DNA of 64,000 nucleotides from the NCBI GenBank assembly GCA_036265915.1, contig DATAOC010000040.1, positions 10,571 through 74,570 on the forward strand, given 5' to 3'. A program made the position numbers and the translations under genes. Origin of the DNA: Candidatus Methylomirabilota bacterium. GTDB taxonomy: Bacteria; Methylomirabilota; Methylomirabilia; Rokubacteriales; CSP1-6. Below are positions 3,444 to 52,988 of the stretch, one piece after another; position 1 is the first letter of the stretch, and each line of letters opens with the position of its first letter. Below the pieces are notes generated by a model. It searched no databases. It saw only the letters and a list, made by a program, of their open reading frames with translations, and was not told the origin of the DNA.

Positions 3444-3881
3444 GTGAACAAGACCCACATCAGCCACACCAAGGATCGCGGCCGCGGTATCGATGCGCTG
3501 AAGGGCACGAGCGTGCCCGCGGTCTTCTGCGATGTCGTGAAGGTGCAGCTCAAGGAGTGCGTGATGCTGTTCGTGTCGGGCAAGCTCGGCACCAAGCCCG
3601 ACGGAACGCTGGCCGGCCGGACGATGCGCGAGCAGACGCAGCAGCTGCTGGAGAACATTCGGGAGGCGCTCCGGCACGAGGGCGCGACCATGGACGACAT
3701 CGTCCGCGTCCGCGTCTACGCCACGCAGGTGGACGCCGCCTCGCTGCGCGACATCCACGAGGTCCGCTCCACGTTCTGGTCGGAGGGAAAGTACCCGGCG
3801 AGCACGCTCGTGCGTGTCTCGCAGCTCATCCGCGACGGCGCCCTGATCGAGATCGACGCCGACGCCATCGTGGCCTCCTGA
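3444..3881 (+). CDS. RidA / YjgF / endoribonuclease L-PSP family protein
   Basis: 145 aa with the typical RidA core ...VRVRVYATQVDAASL...EIDAIA. Confidence 0.8.
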   Translation: MNKTHISHTKDRGRGIDALKGTSVPAVFCDVVKVQLKECVMLFVSGKLGTKPDGTLAGRTMREQTQQLLENIREALRHEGATMDDIVRVRVYATQVDAASLRDIHEVRSTFWSEGKYPASTLVRVSQLIRDGALIEIDADAIVAS

Positions 3882-5635: not shown

Positions 5636-6106
5636 TCAGTCCTGGAAGCCGACGAGCCGCCAGGCGTCGCCGAGACGGCGCGCCACCTCGGGCTCGCCCT
5701 GCCACGAGAGCACCGTGACCCAGCCGAGCAGCGGAAGACGCCCCGTCACCTCGCCGGTCGTGTAAACCCATGCTGCGCCGTCGACGACCTCGACGCGGTC
5801 CACCCGGACGCTCGCCCGCAGCGCCTCGTACAGCGAGTACAGCGTGACCAGGTGCTGACGCACGTCGGGCTTGGTGATACCGCCGCTGCGGTAGTTGTCG
5901 GCGAGGTACGCGAGCACACCGCCGCTGTCGCGGGCGACGAAACGTCGGCGCGCGTCCTCCACCAGCGCGCGCAGCTCTTCGGTGGTGCTCGCGGAGGCCG
6001 GCGTCGCGACGCGCGGCGTGCTGGGGCTGGCGAGCCCGGCCGGCGGCGCCACCAGCACGGCGAGCACGGCGAAGGCAGCGACGGCGAGCGCGGCGGATCG
6101 TCTCAT
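5636..6106 (-). CDS. Secreted NTF2/SnoaL-like (DUF4440-like) protein
   Basis: N-terminal signal peptide (MRRSAALAVAAFAVLAVLVAPPAG) followed by a small alpha+beta domain. GC3 bias. Confidence 0.55.
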   Translation of the reverse strand: MRRSAALAVAAFAVLAVLVAPPAGLASPSTPRVATPASASTTEELRALVEDARRRFVARDSGGVLAYLADNYRSGGITKPDVRQHLVTLYSLYEALRASVRVDRVEVVDGAAWVYTTGEVTGRLPLLGWVTVLSWQGEPEVARRLGDAWRLVGFQD

Positions 6107-6141: not shown

Positions 6142-7335
6142 TCAGACGACGCGGGCGCGGCGCAGCTGCTCGATGTCGGCCGGCGTGTAGCCGGCCTCGG
6201 CGAGGATCTCGTCGGTGTGCTCACCGAGCGTGGGCGGCTCGCGGTCGATGCTCGGGCTGCCGTGGGCCAGGCGGAAGCCCGCGCCCACGAGCCGGAGCCG
6301 TCCGTAGCGCGTGTCGACGTCCTGGAGCACGTCCCGTGACTCGAGCTGCGGATGCTTCACGATCTCGTCGATCTTCCACACCGTGGCGCACGGCACGTCG
6401 GCGGCCGTGAGGCGCGCCTCCCACGACTTCGGCTCGTCCTTCGCGAGGGCGGCCTCGATGACCTCGCGCAGGGCCGGCTCGTTGTCGGTGCGCGCCCGCC
6501 AGTCCTTGAAGCGCGGGTCGTCGAGGGCGTCGGCGCGGCCGATGGTCCGCATCAGGCTCGCGAACTGCTTCTCGGTGAGCACGGCGAGGACGAGGTAGCC
6601 GCTGCCGGCGCGGAAGCGGTTGGCGGTCGGCTTGCGGCTCACGGAGCCGTTGCCGATCTGCTTCTGCTCGATCCCGGCCACCGTGTACTCGGACACGGGG
6701 CCGGGAATGAACGCCAGCGCGGCGTCGAGCATGGCCACGTCGACGAACTGACCCCGGCCCGTATGCGTGCGCTGGTAGAGCGCGCTGGCGACCGCGAGGG
6801 CGGCCGTGACGCCGCCGATGGTGTCGCAGATGGCGAAGCCCGCGCGCATCGGGCCGCCCGACGGCTCGCCGGTGATCGACATGATGCCCGACATCGCCTG
6901 CAGCTTGCCGTCGAAGGCGGCCGTCGTCCGTTCGGGGCCCGTGTGGCCGAAGCCGGATACGGAACAGTAGATCAGGCGCGGATTGACGGCGGCGAGCGCG
7001 TCGTAGCCGAGCCCGAGCCGGTCCATGACGCCCGGACGGAAGTTCTCCCACACGACGTCGGCGGTCGGCACCAGGCGCTTGACGACCTCCACCGCTGCCG
7101 GCTGCCGCAGATCGAGCGTGATGCTGCGCTTGTTCGCGTTGACGGCCAGGAACGACGACGCCATCTTGCGCTCCGCCCACTCCTTGCTGATCAGCAGGTG
7201 GCGCGACTCGTCGCCCTCGTGTGATTCGATCTTGACGACGTCGGCACCGAGAAGAGCGAGCTGGTACGTCCCGTAGGGACCGGCGAGATAGCGCGTGAAG
7301 TCGAGGATGCGGACGCCCGCGAACGGCTTGCTCAT
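6142..7335 (-). CDS. Family III CoA-transferase (CaiB/BaiF type)
   Basis: MSKPFAGVRILDFTRYLAGPYGT...DVVKIES N-terminal signature and ...CSVSGFGHTGP. Its ATG (7335..7333) overlaps the upstream gene's TGA (ATGA). Confidence 0.9.
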   Translation of the reverse strand: MSKPFAGVRILDFTRYLAGPYGTYQLALLGADVVKIESHEGDESRHLLISKEWAERKMASSFLAVNANKRSITLDLRQPAAVEVVKRLVPTADVVWENFRPGVMDRLGLGYDALAAVNPRLIYCSVSGFGHTGPERTTAAFDGKLQAMSGIMSITGEPSGGPMRAGFAICDTIGGVTAALAVASALYQRTHTGRGQFVDVAMLDAALAFIPGPVSEYTVAGIEQKQIGNGSVSRKPTANRFRAGSGYLVLAVLTEKQFASLMRTIGRADALDDPRFKDWRARTDNEPALREVIEAALAKDEPKSWEARLTAADVPCATVWKIDEIVKHPQLESRDVLQDVDTRYGRLRLVGAGFRLAHGSPSIDREPPTLGEHTDEILAEAGYTPADIEQLRRARVV

Positions 7336-8237
7336 GCCTGCTCGCGCTTGGCCCTGGCCACGGCCTTGATGTCATCGAACTCGCGGCGCCGCTCAGCGAT
7401 CTGCTCGGGCGTCATGCGATCGAGGTTCGAGAAGTCGAGCTTCCAGGCCGCGTCGTCATGCCAGCGCAGCGACGACTGCACCGTCGTGCGCGCGGCCGGT
7501 GCGCTCTCCAGCACCCGCAACGCCAGCTCCAGCGTGAACGCCTGCGACGGCCGGTCGAATGGCCGTCCGGCAGAGTTGCCGAGCGGGAAGTCGCTGAAGA
7601 GGAAGCGCGGCACCCCGCAGTACTCGACGATGTCCTTGGCGCAGCCCATGATGACCGTCGGCACGCCGTTCGCCTCCAGGTGTCGCGCGACCAGACTGAC
7701 CGTCTGGTGGCAGACGGGTCAGGTCGGGACGAGGAGAGCGGCATCGGCGCCATCCTCCCGGCACCGCTCCAGCAGGCTCGGCGCGTCGACCTCCATGGTC
7801 ACGCGCTGGCTGCGATTCGTGGGGGCGCCGTGCAGCCGCGGCGTGAGCGCGCCCAGGCGGCCGCGCTTGACCGCCTGCTGCAGCTCCGCCAGCGGCAGCC
7901 ACGTGTTCGGATCCTCGGCCGTCGTGTGCACGCGATCGTAGCCGACGTGCGAGATACGCAGGTCCGGGATGGTCTCGGTGGACTCCGAGTAGACCTTGTA
8001 GAACTTGGCGGCGGCGTTGTACGGCGCGCCTGGGCCCTGCTCGCCGGCGCCCGGCTGAAAGGGCGCCGCGGTGGTGATCAGCGCGAGCCGCGCCTCGGCG
8101 AGTGGCCGACGCAGCGGCGAAAACGGCACGTCGTCGAAATGCGCCCAGCGATAGGCGCCGTACCCGAGCCGCAGATAGTAGTCGCGCGTGCGCTGCATGT
8201 ACGGAATCGGCACGTCATGCTCGGCAGCGAACGCCAT
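7332..8237 (-). CDS. GrdB/PrdB-like reductase (glycine/sarcosine/betaine/D-proline reductase selenoprotein-B family). Candidate selenoprotein with an in-frame TGA at 7719..7721 read as Sec
   Basis: ORFs 7719..8546 and 7332..7664 are in the same frame and are separated only by TGA. SD AAGGAGG lies 5 nt before ATG 8237. The downstream piece has no start or SD (the listed 'M' is GTG). GC3 bias is continuous across the TGA. Read-through gives ...ALLVPT-U-PVCHQTV... (UxxC). A stem-loop sits 11 nt after the UGA. The family call is from memory. Confidence 0.6.
7690..7708 (-). ncRNA. Putative bacterial SECIS-like stem-loop (mRNA element) for the TGA at 7719..7721
   Basis: Minus-strand RNA ACCAGAC-GGUCA-GUCUGGU: 7-bp stem, 5-nt loop containing G and U, beginning 11 nt 3' of the UGA. 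An alternative mutually exclusive hairpin is CCGUCUG-CCAC-CAGACGG. Confidence 0.45.
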
Positions 8238-8283: not shown

Positions 8284-10077
8284 TCAGCTGGCGCGCGAGC
8301 GGGCCAGCTCCTGCTCGACGAGCGCCGCGAGATCTTCCAGTGTTCGCCGGTCGGCGTCGCTGAGGTCGCGCGGCCGGTGGTCGCCGAGACACAGCGTCCC
8401 GATGCGGTGGGGGCCGATGCGGACCGGATGGCCAGCGTAGAACCGGATACGCGGCTCGCCGGCGACGAGCGGGTTGTCGGCGAAGCGCGGATCGAGCCGG
8501 GCGTCCGGGACGACGAACGGGTCGTCGCCGTGAATCGTGTAGGCACAGAACGCCGCCTCCCGCGGCGTCTCGCGAATGTCGATGCCGCTCGTGGACTTGA
8601 ACCACTGCCGCTCCTCGTCGACGAGGGTCACCAGCGCCATCGGCACGTCGAACACCCGCCGGGCCAGGCGTGTCAGCCGATCGAACCGCTCCTCCGACGG
8701 CGTGTCGAGCAGCTGGAGCCGACGCAGCGCCTCCACCCGGTCGGGCTCGTCGACCGGCGCCGGCGCCGACACCCAGCGGCACGCCTGACGCAGCGCCCAC
8801 GCGCGAATCCGCGTGCGGGCGTACACGAGCGAGAACGGCGCCACCAGCCAGTCGGTGACGCCGGCCTCGGCTCCGCCGGCCCGGTCCGCTTCGGATTCGC
8901 GCGCGGCGACCATGACGATCGGCAGGTCGGCCGCGTCGTGCCGGAGCATGCGCGCGAGCTCGAGGCCGTCGTCGCCGCCGAGCCGGCGTCCGAGGAGCAG
9001 CAGCGAGGGGGGCGTCACGCGGACGAGGGAGACGGCCTCGTCGGGCGTCTTGGCGATCATCACCGTGAAGCCGTCGACACGCGCCGCATCGGCGAGCCGC
9101 TCGCGCAGCGCCGTCTGCGCCACCGCGACCAGGACGGACTGCGCGAGCGCTCGGCACGGCACCGCCGACTCTGCGTCCACGGGCGAGGGCGGGGCGGTCG
9201 CGTGCCGCACGGCATGCTGAGCGCCGCGCACGTCGAGCGTCTGTCCCTCCGCGGCTGCGAACAGATCGACGGTCGACGCGGTGCGCCGCGCCGCCGCGAC
9301 GACAGCGTCGAGGCCGGCGTCGTCGCGGTGCGGGTCGTGGTGGAAGAGCGCGACGCGGCGGACATCGGCGTCACGGGCGAGCGTCGCCACCGAGTCGACC
9401 GTGCTGTGCCCCCAGCCGATCTTGCTCGCGTACTCCGCGACGGTGTACTGCGCGTCGTGGATGAGGAGATCCGCTCCGGCGAGGAACTGCGCGTGGCGCC
9501 GGTCCTCGCCGGTCAGCTCGCCGGCGAGGCCCTCGGCGAGCGCGCGGCTGTGAGGCTCGTGATCGGTTGCGTACACCAGCGTGGCGCCGTCGGCCTCGAG
9601 CCGATAGCCGAGGGTGAGCGCGGGATGATTGAGATAGCGCGTGCTCACGCGGATGTCGCCGATGGCGAACTCGCCCTCCACGAGATCGTGATAGCGGACA
9701 GTGGCGGCGAACTGCTCGAGCGTGATCGGGAAATAGGTGTACTGCATCTGTCCGGCGAGCGTCTCGCGGAGCGACTCGCGCAGGCCTCGCGGCGCGTAGA
9801 CATCCCACTCGTCGCCCGGCGCGAAGAGCGGCGCGAAGAACGGAAAGCCCTGGATGTGATCCCAGTGCGTGTGCGTGATGAGGATGTGGCCGCGCCGCGG
9901 CCCCCGCTGCGCCATGAGCGCGTGCCCGAGCGCATGCGCCCCGGTGCCGCAGTCGAGCACCAGCAACAGGCCGGAATCCGAGCGCACTTCCACGCAGGAG
10001 GTATTGCCGCCGTAGCGAACGGTGCCCGCACCCGGCTTGGCGATGGAGCCCCGCGTTCCCCAGAACCGAACTCGCAT
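8284..10077 (-). CDS. Multidomain protein: MBL-fold metallo-hydrolase + pseudo-receiver + GAF domain
   Basis: 597 aa from ATG 10077 (SD AGGAGG). HTHWDH metal-binding motif. Middle REC-like domain with the phospho-acceptor position substituted (LLLLGRRL). C-terminal GAF (…FCAYTIHGDDPFVVPDARLDPRF…). Confidence 0.75.
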   Translation of the reverse strand: MRVRFWGTRGSIAKPGAGTVRYGGNTSCVEVRSDSGLLLVLDCGTGAHALGHALMAQRGPRRGHILITHTHWDHIQGFPFFAPLFAPGDEWDVYAPRGLRESLRETLAGQMQYTYFPITLEQFAATVRYHDLVEGEFAIGDIRVSTRYLNHPALTLGYRLEADGATLVYATDHEPHSRALAEGLAGELTGEDRRHAQFLAGADLLIHDAQYTVAEYASKIGWGHSTVDSVATLARDADVRRVALFHHDPHRDDAGLDAVVAAARRTASTVDLFAAAEGQTLDVRGAQHAVRHATAPPSPVDAESAVPCRALAQSVLVAVAQTALRERLADAARVDGFTVMIAKTPDEAVSLVRVTPPSLLLLGRRLGGDDGLELARMLRHDAADLPIVMVAARESEADRAGGAEAGVTDWLVAPFSLVYARTRIRAWALRQACRWVSAPAPVDEPDRVEALRRLQLLDTPSEERFDRLTRLARRVFDVPMALVTLVDEERQWFKSTSGIDIRETPREAAFCAYTIHGDDPFVVPDARLDPRFADNPLVAGEPRIRFYAGHPVRIGPHRIGTLCLGDHRPRDLSDADRRTLEDLAALVEQELARSRAS

Positions 10078-10191
10078 CAAACCCTCCTGAGCGTGCCAGA
10101 GAGAGATGCCACAAGTCGGGCGTGTGCGAAAGGCCCTGGGGAAGGCGCCTCGTCGTCGCGTATGATGGCGCCTCACCGGTGGAGGTGAGGC

Positions 10192-11088
10192 ATGGCAAAC
10201 GTGCAGCTGGCGCGGGTGGCGCGCCCGGAGGGCGCGGCGTGGGGCATCGTCGCCGACGACCACATCGAGCTCGTGGCCACGGATGCGGGGACGAACGGCG
10301 GCTTCTTCGCGTCGCTTTTGCAGCTTCCGCGCCCTGCCCGCGCGCTGGCCGAGCGTCGCCGCGGGGCGCCGTCGCTGAAGCTCGCGGACGTCGTCGCGGC
10401 GCCGGTCGGCGGCAACGCGCCGCATCTGCTGCCCCCGCTGGACCTGCAAGAAGTCTGGGCGGCGGGGGTGACGTACGAGCGCAGTCGCGTGGCGCGCATG
10501 GAGGAGACCGCGGGCGCCGAGACGTTCTACGACAAGGTCTACACGGCCGAGCGCCCCGAGCTGTTCTTCAAGGGCGCCGCTTCGCGGGTGAGCGGACACA
10601 ACGGGCCGATCCGCATCCGCCGCGACGCCACCTGGAACGTGCCGGAGCCCGAGATCGCGGTCCTGGTCACCGCGCACGGCGAGGTCGCCGGCTACTGCAT
10701 CGGCAACGACGTCAGCTCACGCGACATCGAAGGCGAGAACCCGCTCTATCTCCCGCAAGCGAAGATCTACCGGCAGTCGTGCGCGCTCGGCCCGGTGGTG
10801 TGGCTGACCGACGAGGAGTCGGCACCGGTGTTCGACATCGCCATCAGCATCCAGCGTCGCGGCGCCGTCGTCTACGACGGCAAGATCTCGACCTCGTCGA
10901 TGCGCCGGTCGTTCGCCGACCTTGCCGGCTGGCTCGTGCGCGACAACGTGTTTCCCGCCGGCGCCTACCTCCTCACCGGGACCGGGCTCGTGCCCGAGTC
11001 GGGATTCACGCTGAGCGTCGACGATCGCGTGTCGATCACCGTGCCCCGGCTGGGCACGCTGGCCAACCACGTCGTCCAGGACCCATGA
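10192..11088 (+). CDS. Fumarylacetoacetate hydrolase (FAH) family protein
   Basis: 298 aa. FAH-family C-terminal fold (…GNDVSSRDIEGENPLYLPQAKIY…). SD GGAGGTGAGG. Confidence 0.85.
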   Translation: MANVQLARVARPEGAAWGIVADDHIELVATDAGTNGGFFASLLQLPRPARALAERRRGAPSLKLADVVAAPVGGNAPHLLPPLDLQEVWAAGVTYERSRVARMEETAGAETFYDKVYTAERPELFFKGAASRVSGHNGPIRIRRDATWNVPEPEIAVLVTAHGEVAGYCIGNDVSSRDIEGENPLYLPQAKIYRQSCALGPVVWLTDEESAPVFDIAISIQRRGAVVYDGKISTSSMRRSFADLAGWLVRDNVFPAGAYLLTGTGLVPESGFTLSVDDRVSITVPRLGTLANHVVQDP

Positions 11089-11663
11089 ACGCGCACGGGC
11101 ACCTGCCCAAGGCCGATCCGGCCGAGCTGGCTCCGGAGCTGCGCCGGCGGCTCGAGGTGTGGTTCGACAAGGCCTACCGCGACGACAACCTGTTCCTCAC
11201 GCTGGCGCGCGAGCCGGCGGTGCTCGACCTGTTCCTGGGCTGGGTATCGCTGATCTACACGGAGCGCGCGCGCCTGGAGCCCAAGGTCGTGGAGCTGTGC
11301 CGCATCCGGCTCGCCGCCCGCAACGCCTGCGTGCACTGAAGCCTCGCGCGTAGCGCATCGTTGATGCGCAACGGGCTGACGGGGGCGGAGGTCGATGCAG
11401 CGCTCGGCGATCTCGACGCCGCCACGGCCCTGCCGCCGGCGACGGTGACCGCCTTGCGCCTGGCCGACCGGCTCACGGAGCCGGCGCCGCGCGTCGATCG
11501 CGAGTTCTACGCGGAGCTGCGGCGGCACTTCGACGAAGGCCAGATCCTGGCCCTCGGTGCCGCGCTGTCGGTCGCCTCGGGCTGGCAGCGTTTCATCGAG
11601 GCCTTCGGGATCCGCCCTGACGGCTGGACGGAGGCGACCCCGGTGCCCGGGCGCCCGACCTAG
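11085..11663 (+). CDS. Carboxymuconolactone decarboxylase / AhpD-like (peroxidase-related) protein. Candidate selenoprotein with an in-frame TGA at 11337..11339 read as Sec
   Basis: ATG 11085 overlaps the FAH stop (ATGA). The first 84 codons end ...RNACVH-TGA. TGA is in frame with ORF 11361..11663, whose 'M' is TTG inside the hairpin loop. Read-through gives the CxxU motif CVHU at the position of the AhpD/CMD CxxC. A hairpin begins 14 nt after the TGA. Total length about 192 aa, matching peroxidase-related CMD proteins. Confidence 0.6.
11353..11369 (+). ncRNA. Putative bacterial SECIS-like stem-loop for the TGA at 11337..11339
   Basis: GCGCAUC-GUU-GAUGCGC: perfect 7-bp stem, G/U loop, 13-nt spacer after the UGA. 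Confidence 0.45.
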
Positions 11664-52067: not shown

Positions 52068-52988
52068 TCACGCGCCGCGAGGCGCGAGCGCTTCCATCTG
52101 GCGGAAAACGTCGGTGACCGAGCACTGCGACAGCTGGAACGTCGGGTCGAGGAACACCTCGGTGGCGCCGGCGTCCTCGTAGCGCTTCACGTCGTCGCGA
52201 ATGTCCTCGAGCGAGCCGCAGAAGACCGCGCGGTGCTTGCTCTGTGCCGCGGAGGTGACCTTGAACGAGCCGCGCGAGGCGACCATGACGCGGGCCGGAT
52301 CGCGCCCGGCGCCGGCGGCGTGCTCGCGCACGCGGCGCACGATGTGGGCGAGCTTCTCCGGCGCCATGTTGCCGCCCGTATAGCCGTCGCCGAAGCGCCC
52401 GGCGCGACGGAACGACGGCTCGCTGTAGCCGCCGATGAGCAGCGGCGGCCGTGGCTTCTGCAGCGGCTTGGGCTCCACGCGCGAGGACGGAACGAAGTAG
52501 AACACGCCCTTGAACGTCACCTCGGGTTGCGTCCAGATCGCGTCGAGACACTGGATGAACTCGTCGGCGCGCTCGCCGCGCTGCGCGAATGGCGTGCCGG
52601 CGGCGTCGTATTCGTCGCGCGACCAGCCGATGCCGAGCCCGACCGTGAGCCGCCCGCCCGACATGATGTCGAGCGTGGCCAGCTGCTTGCCGAGCACGAT
52701 CGGCGAGTAGAAGGGCGCCACCAGGACGCTGGTGCCGAGCCGCACGCGCCGGGTCTGCGCGGCCAGGAAGGCGAGGGTGACGATGGGGTCGAAGGTGGAG
52801 CGGAAGGGCTCCGGCCACGCCTCGTTGACGGCGCCGTAGTAGGTGTTGAGCGGAGAGACGGGACACAGCAGCCTCTGAAAGACCCACAGCGAGTGATAGC
52901 CGAGCGCTTCGGCGTGCCGTGCCAGCGCGCTGACGTTGTCAGCGGTGGCCGCCGCTCCGCCGATCGGAAGACCAAAGCCCAGCTTCAT
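52068..52988 (-). CDS. LLM-class F420-dependent oxidoreductase
   Basis: MKLGFGLPIGG..., ...GYHSLWVFQ..., ...VGLGIGW... Confidence 0.8.
   Translation of the reverse strand: MKLGFGLPIGGAAATADNVSALARHAEALGYHSLWVFQRLLCPVSPLNTYYGAVNEAWPEPFRSTFDPIVTLAFLAAQTRRVRLGTSVLVAPFYSPIVLGKQLATLDIMSGGRLTVGLGIGWSRDEYDAAGTPFAQRGERADEFIQCLDAIWTQPEVTFKGVFYFVPSSRVEPKPLQKPRPPLLIGGYSEPSFRRAGRFGDGYTGGNMAPEKLAHIVRRVREHAAGAGRDPARVMVASRGSFKVTSAAQSKHRAVFCGSLEDIRDDVKRYEDAGATEVFLDPTFQLSQCSVTDVFRQMEALAPRGA

Follow-up and report, generated by a model that had tools for sequence, protein, structure and literature searches.

A UGA-interrupted AhpD-like gene from a Candidatus Methylomirabilota bacterium probably encodes a single CxxU selenoprotein

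One reading frame across an in-frame UGA

The window analyzed in this study is a stretch of 64,000 nt of DNA from a Candidatus Methylomirabilota bacterium with an overall GC content of 71%. On its forward strand, two adjacent "half genes" most probably form one gene for a 192-residue AhpD-like selenoprotein of the carboxymuconolactone decarboxylase (CMD) family, whose in-frame UGA is read as selenocysteine (Sec); we put the probability of this reading at roughly 90%. From a reading frame that continues past the UGA, fold homology over both halves, the position of the UGA in a cysteine column, its conservation among relatives and selection on the hairpin next to it, we infer that Sec is inserted at UGA 11337-11339.

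The gene occupies positions 11085..11663 (forward strand) and consists of 192 codons including Sec85, followed by the stop codon TAG 11661-11663; these limits rest on the translation, the Pfam CMD match and a profile match to PDB entry 2prr. Its start codon, ATG 11085-11087, overlaps with the stop codon TGA 11086-11088 of an upstream FAA-hydrolase-family gene, giving an ATGA at 11085..11088 (forward strand). The N-terminal piece comprises 84 aa and ends with ...AARNACVH, followed by TGA 11337-11339, the presumably recoded codon (forward strand). Past this TGA, 107 further codons continue in the same frame up to the TAG, and no other stop is met before. The N-terminus of the gene product, MNAHGHLPKADP, lines up with the starts of homologues, which read MANEHG.LPKADP or MNEHGHLPKA. 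GC content at third codon positions (GC3) amounts to 0.98 in the 180 nt 5' of the TGA and to 0.90 in the 180 nt 3' of it; thus, both sides are coding-like in one frame.

This layout had been proposed in an earlier note on the same DNA, which described an ORF 11085..11339 starting in an ATGA overlap with the FAA hydrolase stop and ending in ...AARNACVH-TGA, and a second ORF 11361..11663 in the same frame whose 'M' is a TTG without a Shine-Dalgarno sequence. Both ORFs are present at these positions, and the sequence agrees with the description of the TTG. The note further suggested that the TGA lies within a CxxC motif, which would become CxxU (CVHU), and that the two pieces of 84 and 107 aa, neither of them complete, make up one CMD domain of about 190 aa. 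The searches reported in the following section are in good agreement with both suggestions.

Fold of the fused protein

With C written in place of U, the fused protein is matched by Pfam CMD (PF02627) with 29.7 bits (gathering cut-off 23) over residues 54-128, a range that spans the TGA. Neither half alone reveals any Pfam family match, such that only the 192-aa fusion is recognized as a CMD protein. The family profile matches the AhpD-core structure 2prr with an E-value of 4.6e-16 over profile positions 8-179. In this alignment N-Q-C-v-h-C-s-l-a-r stands opposite N-Q-C-L-Y-C-V-V-A-H, so that the TGA column coincides with the second Cys in the C-L-Y-C (CxxC) motif of 2prr.

The fold was checked on an AlphaFold model of P0001, a Cys-containing homologue with 66% identity. 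Here and below, P-numbers denote relatives from the protein database and L-numbers denote loci from a collection of species-representative genomes. The model is all-helical (mean pLDDT 83, pTM 0.78). Foldseek aligns it to 2prr over 177-184 columns with TM-scores of 0.69-0.76, and 2prr, 2ijc, 3c1l, and 6k40 are each found with a probability of 1.00 and TM-scores up to 0.76; the model also fits PA0269, Mlr4105, and the AhpD of D. radiodurans. Since the model aligns along 2prr over 177-184 columns, both halves are, as judged from this homologue, parts of one AhpD-core domain. The three-helix motif of the gamma-CMD type, which lacks CxxC (PMC3141380), does not describe the window protein: its motif is of the CxxC type found in the AhpD branch, and decarboxylase activity is therefore not expected.

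Distribution of the UGA column among relatives

As database relatives we considered the 120 best cluster representatives of a protein search. The vast majority, 109, are halves cut exactly at the TGA column: 97 are C-terminal halves, for most of which the Met of ...SLMR was taken as the start, and 12 are N-terminal halves that end exactly with ...C-V-H. Four relatives read through this column with Cys and five with Gly, while two were left unclassified. In the genome collection, TGA was found at the identical column in 28 loci, always in frame and with conserved protein on either side. Together with the window these give 29 sequences, in which C-V-H-TGA is invariant and in which the seven codons from the TGA to the first Met (SLARSAS) are in frame and conserved at the protein level without exception (29/29).

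The 28 TGA loci stem from metagenome-assembled genomes (MAGs) of at least eight lineages, including Methylomirabilota/Rokuibacteriota, Acidimicrobiia/Actinomycetota, Binatia, Dormiibacterota, Eisenbacteria, Entotheonellaceae, Deferrimicrobiaceae, Desulfobacteraceae, and Acidoferrum. At 74-77% identity, genes from Methylomirabilota/Rokuibacteriota MAGs are the nearest relatives of the window gene. Uninterrupted homologues with Cys at the column, of the form C-V/L-H-C, are given by P0001, P0002, P0006, and P0039; at the DNA level the Cys forms carry TGC (L038, L039). The comparison with related genomes that the earlier note had called for thus yielded both Cys-containing homologues with an open frame and 28 further loci with the TGA.

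These data bear on the simplest competing explanation, namely that the TGA is a true stop separating two small genes of 84 aa and about 100 aa, the second of which would be translated from TTG 11361 or by re-initiation, maybe as a split CMD domain. Gene callers treat the locus in this way, as the halves are annotated separately in nearly all databases, and UGA serves as an ordinary stop in the window, where it terminates 24 of the 38 well-supported ORFs and is the commonest stop codon. However, a stop at this site would cut the protein within its CxxC motif and leave two halves without any Pfam match of their own; the SLARSAS codons, which would lie between the two pieces, are conserved in frame in all 29 sequences; and TTG 11361, the earliest start-like codon 3' of the TGA, is not preceded by any Shine-Dalgarno-like sequence, as sequence inspection revealed. 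Furthermore, TGC homologues read straight through, and the hairpin described in the next section accompanies TGA and disappears with TGC. We thus consider two separate genes very unlikely.

Two observations on individual relatives are added here. A distant CMD-family gene with 32% identity, located at about 6190-6200 of L032 (Acidobacteria MAG JAJYIU010000027.1), likewise shows TGA in frame at this column; its motif is N-H-C-D-Y-TGA-L-A-S-H, which retains the canonical relay His at position +4. Judged from its sequence, this gene is a candidate for an independent CxxU AhpD-like selenoprotein. In P0050 (260 aa, ENA), the region is read through in a shifted frame (…CTEASRAAHRWCARGSTEPEVQQALGDL…), probably because the gene call is frameshifted or the assembly is wrong across the TGA and the hairpin.

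A conserved hairpin downstream of the UGA

Thirteen nucleotides past the UGA, just where the earlier note had placed it, begins a hairpin of 17 nt, GCGCAUC-GUU-GAUGCGC (11353..11369, forward strand). It is composed of a perfect stem of 7 bp (11353-11359 / 11363-11369) and an apical loop of three nucleotides (GUU, 11360-11362). The single-sequence fold of the window suggests a possible extension by a lower stem, GC.CGU ... ACG.GC (11346..11376, forward strand), whose role is uncertain because it is missing from the consensus fold of the relatives.

We compared the hairpin with the published constraints on the bacterial Sec insertion sequence (bSECIS; PMC13188914), computing the energy on the UGA plus 41 nt. 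The apical loop measures 3 nt (model: 3-9 nt) and the upper stem 7 bp (4-16 bp), the G required in the first two loop positions is found at position 1, the loop lies 20 nt from the UGA (16-37 nt), and the minimum free energy is -19.8 kcal/mol (model: at most -7.5 kcal/mol). If the closing C-G pair is included, the loop conforms to the common pattern N1-G-[G/U]-N-N2 as well. The SECIS check suggested by the earlier note hence turned out in favor of the hairpin, which agrees with the published model and, moreover, covaries.

The evidence for covariation comes from group A, i.e., the window and 19 relatives (20 sequences). The 7-bp stem is paired in all 140 of 140 cells. Compensatory double changes occur at two pairs: A-U is replaced by G-C in three sequences, and G-C by U-A or U-G in two. 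Not a single one of 500 shuffles matched the observed pairing or covariation, and sliding the stem partners against each other lowers the pairing to 11-46%. The compensating changes alter the amino acids encoded on both arms, from SASLMR to SASLAR, SASLTR, SSSLMG, or SSSLMS, which argues that selection acts on the RNA.

Codon choice within the hairpin reveals a similar picture. The Ser codons AGC and TCG, neither of them rare in window genes, are found in 20/20 sequences each. TTG occurs in 18/18 sequences and accounts for 2.3% of the Leu codons in window genes; GCA occurs in 14/18 and accounts for 3.2% of the Ala codons. In the four sequences with GCG, the G replaces the A of the 27/35 stem pair; in three of them the partner base has changed too, giving G-C, and the fourth is left with a G-U wobble. 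The conserved Ala, Arg, and Leu codons that flank the hairpin show free synonymous variation. In the Cys (TGC) homologues the hairpin is lost, as in L038 with AGC GGC TCG CTG ATG AAG. From this comparative sequence evidence we conclude that the hairpin is maintained by selection as an RNA element and is linked to the UGA.

A second sub-group of relatives shows a different hairpin. In group B (L020-L028, 51-52% identical, mostly Methylomirabilota/Rokuibacteriota) the UGA is kept, and it is followed by CCUCGGC-CGUGN-GCCGGGG, which begins 16 nt past the UGA and occupies the region of approximately 16-45 nt; with one compensatory pair in nine sequences, support by covariation is thin here. Groups A and B may thus represent one Sec codon served by two non-homologous SECIS solutions.

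If the hairpin acts as a bacterial SECIS, it would keep SelB-GTP-Sec-tRNA(Sec) bound while the ribosome reaches the UGA, and Sec would be inserted at codon 85. A full-length protein could also arise if the UGA were read through without Sec, with Trp or Cys put in by near-cognate decoding, or through a suppressor-type event stimulated by the hairpin; the product would then lack selenium. Downstream structures are generally known to be able to stimulate read-through, and the machinery of Sec insertion is not visible in the 64-kb window. On the other hand, the column is a redox-active position occupied by Cys in homologues, the hairpin fits a SelB-type bSECIS model including the G of the loop and the spacing, and a documented Sec family shows the identical CxxU motif (PMC1088965, PMC2398784). 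In addition, the window contains a similarly arranged PrdB-like gene of a second known selenoprotein family (see below). Read-through without Sec is therefore improbable in our view.

The putative active site

The redox motif Cys82-Val83-His84-Sec85 is encoded by TGC GTG CAC TGA (11328..11339, forward strand) and aligns to C-L-Y-C of 2prr. Twelve residues ahead of Cys82 lies Glu70 (codon 11292..11294, forward strand). The spacing is identical in M. tuberculosis AhpD (MtAhpD, Glu118-Cys130) and in P. aeruginosa PA0269 (Glu36-Cys48). Along this line, the residue preceding the second Cys is His132 in MtAhpD, Tyr50 in PA0269, and His84 in the window protein, and the second Cys itself corresponds to Cys133, Cys51, and Sec85, respectively. 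Four residues further on, the relay His (His137 in MtAhpD, His55 in PA0269) is replaced by Arg89 (codon 11349..11351, forward strand), which appears as r opposite H in the profile alignment with 2prr.

AhpD-like proteins share a proton relay of five residues, and the relay His was called invariant in the six structures compared (PMC3141380). Arg occupies this position in 20/20 sequences of group A, while Lys, Arg, or Gln is found there in the Cys forms. Glu70 and His84 would thus take AhpD proton-relay positions, with Arg89 in place of the relay histidine. In MtAhpD, Cys133 is the attacking nucleophile; with Cys133 as the attacking residue, Sec85 would be the nucleophile of the window protein. 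The Cys82-Val-His-Sec85 center would then cycle between a selenol/thiol and a selenenylsulfide form, and its substrate may be a peroxide, a peroxiredoxin partner, or a disulfide.

Observations at odds with the selenoprotein reading

Several observations weigh against a selenoprotein of the AhpD type and are considered together here. First, given Arg in place of the relay His, AhpD-type chemistry is not guaranteed. Second, neither SelA nor SelB nor SelD was detected by Pfam and NCBIfam among approximately 45 scanned ORFs of the 64-kb window, and ARAGORN reported no tRNA, and thus no tRNA-Sec, in the same 64 kb. Third, the more specific family models are not reached: the fused protein scores 28.0 bits with TIGR01926 (peroxidase-related enzyme; cut-off 81.8) and 29.7 bits with NF053654 (YciW-related (seleno)protein; cut-off 310). 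NF041047 and NF041238 are absent from the NCBIfam matches at E-values up to 1, such that the general Pfam CMD model is the sole family model passed.

Fourth, the window hairpin taken by itself is only modestly above chance, with z = -2.15 for the 44-nt fold. Of the 707 TGA trinucleotides on the same strand, 18 (2.5%) are followed, at the distance expected of a SECIS, by a perfect 7-bp hairpin whose loop contains a G. Rfam gave no match for the hairpin when the whole window was searched at gathering thresholds, and at E <= 10 the region 11280-11440 yielded chance matches to miRNA and snoRNA families only. It is the conservation and covariation in relatives which lift the hairpin above chance.

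Finally, a minor clade has Gly at the column in question (P0003-P0005, P0007, P0052). The DNA of this clade reads GGA, one base away from TGA, at L037:242, L040:3649, L041:2710, L042:1726, and L043:2684, and the clade retains the perfect hairpin GCGCATC-GTT-GATGCGC. L040-L043 have lost the N-terminal half of the gene, and what remains of it was found on 37 contigs. Because the hairpin is kept and the genes are partly decayed, we read the clade as derived: on sequence grounds its members look like decaying or repurposed copies with a fossil SECIS, and as such they do not refute the Sec reading. The earlier note had expected no sense codon other than Cys at this column in relatives. This was borne out by P0001, P0002, P0006, and P0039, but not by the Gly clade.

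Two further explanations were weighed. One is a genome-wide reassignment of UGA to Gly or Trp (genetic codes 25 or 4), for which the Gly residues of the relatives could be cited. Where the DNA was read, however, these are genuine GGA codons rather than translated TGA, and the idea that Gly in P0003-type proteins is a code-25 translation artefact was accordingly dropped. Among the 24 TGA-terminated ORFs mentioned above there are several, such as the CoA-transferase, FAA hydrolase, and DUF1345 ORFs, whose Pfam matches reach the last profile position or nearly so. As UGA is a normal stop in the window, a change of the genetic code can be excluded for practical purposes.

The other is a pseudogene or a sequencing or assembly error, i.e., a TGC>TGA nonsense mutation in an ordinary Cys-type CMD gene. 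The two codons differ by a single base, and some relatives (L040-L043) are clearly decayed. Yet 28 independent MAG loci, drawn from many phyla, share the TGA, and the coding sequence flanking it on either side is intact and conserved; GC3 is still 0.90 downstream of the TGA in the window; and both purifying and compensatory selection act on the hairpin. An accidental stop codon is hence an extremely improbable explanation, and the insertion of Sec at the UGA remains by far our preferred one.

Probable selenocysteine use by the source organism

A second candidate selenoprotein gene lies 3.6 kb from the AhpD-like gene. This PrdB/GrdB-like ORF (7332..8237, reverse strand) is interrupted in frame by TGA 7719-7721, the surrounding sequence being LLVPT-U-PVC (UxxC). 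Its match to Pfam GRDB stops on the residue before the TGA, which is also the last position of the profile, and the NCBIfam PrdB model TIGR04483 covers residues 39-249, across the TGA. A hairpin of 7 bp, ACCAGAC-GGUCA-GUCUGGU, follows with its loop 17 nt past the UGA. A PDB sequence search with the PrdB-like protein returned nothing useful. PrdB belongs to the known selenoproteins with a UxxC motif (PMC2398784).

Taken together, the AhpD-like and the PrdB-like UGA genes mark the source organism as a probable Sec user. In this phylum, one Methylomirabilota MAG was predicted to have 63 selenoprotein genes (PMC13188914). A comparable pair was observed in L028, a Methylomirabilia MAG: a GrdB/PrdB-like gene at L028:4639 (forward strand) with an in-frame TGA (...LVGSAD-TGA-GSCTSW...VPTAVMGT) is located 1.6 kb upstream of the AhpD-like gene. 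This pairing echoes the two Sec-type genes of the window.

Genomic neighborhood

The upstream FAA-hydrolase-family ORF (10192..11088, forward strand, 298 aa) matches PF01557. It was considered as a conserved partner of the AhpD-like gene and rejected, as the ATGA coupling is specific to the window and the linkage is not kept in relatives. More generally, tblastn and an all-against-all clustering of the flanking ORFs revealed no conserved partner gene for the AhpD-like family. Synteny of the flanking genes is local only and confined to the closest MAGs; a nearby AMP-binding gene of the window has a counterpart with about 80% identity in L001 and L002. No ahpC-like neighbor was seen among the scanned ORFs of the window or the flanking ORFs of the relatives.

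The mechanical ORF list contains long overlapping antisense ORFs in this region, e.g., 8284..10677 (reverse strand) and 10122..11339 (forward strand), which are typical artefacts of high-GC DNA. Two real genes are apparent there: one for a metallo-beta-lactamase/response-regulator/GAF protein (8287..10077, reverse strand), which starts near 10077, and, on the forward strand, the FAA-hydrolase-family gene, which begins at 10192.

Three other TGA codons of the window, each flanked on either side by coding-like sequence in its own frame, could be taken for recoding sites, and all of them were rejected as ordinary stops between adjacent genes. TGA 3879-3881 (forward strand) lies between RidA-like and epimerase genes, TGA 52068-52070 (reverse strand) between luciferase-like and RidA-like genes, and TGA 5636-5638 (reverse strand) between an upstream ORF and an arylmalonate-decarboxylase-like gene.

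Relation to known selenoproteins and AhpD proteins

That AhpD-like proteins are a bacterial selenoprotein family, as the earlier note had stated, is documented in the literature (PMC1088965, PMC2398784, PMC13188914). CxxU-type selenoproteins, both AhpD-like (COG2128/TIGR01926) and with CMD domain (PF02627), were reported in 2005 from the Sargasso Sea with 27 and 4 sequences, respectively (PMC1088965). In the GOS study of 2008, AhpD-like 1 (COG2128, 299 sequences) and AhpD-like 2 (pfam02627, 70 sequences) ranked among the most abundant families (PMC2398784). A 2026 review lists the CxxU families under TIGR01926, PF02627, NF041047, and NF041238 (PMC13188914), and they are also found in BSepDB (PMC13326102). 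The window gene is a new, so far unannotated member of a CxxU selenoprotein family known since 2005, and our findings overturn no current knowledge.

As the clade scores below the NCBIfam cut-offs and has Arg instead of the relay His, it may deserve a sub-family of its own. We raise only as a tentative and rather doubtful proposal that the C-V-H-U...R clade is a distinct, not separately described AhpD-like selenoprotein sub-family of soil and groundwater lineages such as Methylomirabilota/Rokuibacteriota, Acidimicrobiia, and Binatia, in which the Sec form is the rule and the relay His has changed to Arg. If it is real, the exchange of His for Arg could mean that the active site was rewired, a step which the low pKa of the selenol would have enabled or even required, and in any case it offers a testable detail of active-site design with Sec versus Cys. 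For annotation, the consequence is immediate: in the window and about 100 database entries the gene is split into "hypothetical" and "alkylhydroperoxidase family" fragments, which should be joined as one selenoprotein. The hairpin, in turn, is a clean natural case of an RNA structure within a coding region that constrains the choice of codons and even of amino acids.

With the known CxxU AhpD-like and CMD-like selenoproteins the window protein shares the CMD/AhpD fold, Sec instead of the second Cys in the CxxC motif, the existence of Cys homologues, and a bacterial SECIS hairpin within the coding region just 3' of the UGA. It differs from these families in that its clade remains far under the cut-offs of TIGR01926 and NF053654 and has C-V-H-U with Arg rather than His at +4.

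Among the known structures, MtAhpD (1knc/1gu9) and PA0269 (2o4d/2ijc) have in common with the window protein a helix-turn-helix active site and a Glu 12 residues before the first Cys. MtAhpD moreover shows the same C-x-H-C form (Cys130-Ser-His132-Cys133 versus Cys82-Val-His84-Sec85), and PA0269 matches in both profile and fold. In contrast to both, the window protein has Sec for the second Cys, Arg89 for His137/His55, and no ahpC neighbor seen; MtAhpD also fits the P0001 model weakly, with TM-scores of 0.42-0.46. The closest overall counterpart is 2prr, an uncharacterized peroxidase-related protein of the TIGR01926 type with about 190 aa, which gives the best profile match and the best fold match and agrees in length and single-domain architecture. 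It differs by its C-L-Y-C-V-V-A-H motif with Cys and relay His and is about 26% identical.

The hairpin finds its counterpart in the SECIS element of the E. coli fdhF type and the bSECISearch consensus. Its sequence is unrelated to that of fdhF and no bulged U is evident, but it shares the position of the stem-loop within the ORF just past the UGA, the stem of 7 bp, and a loop with G in first and U in second place.

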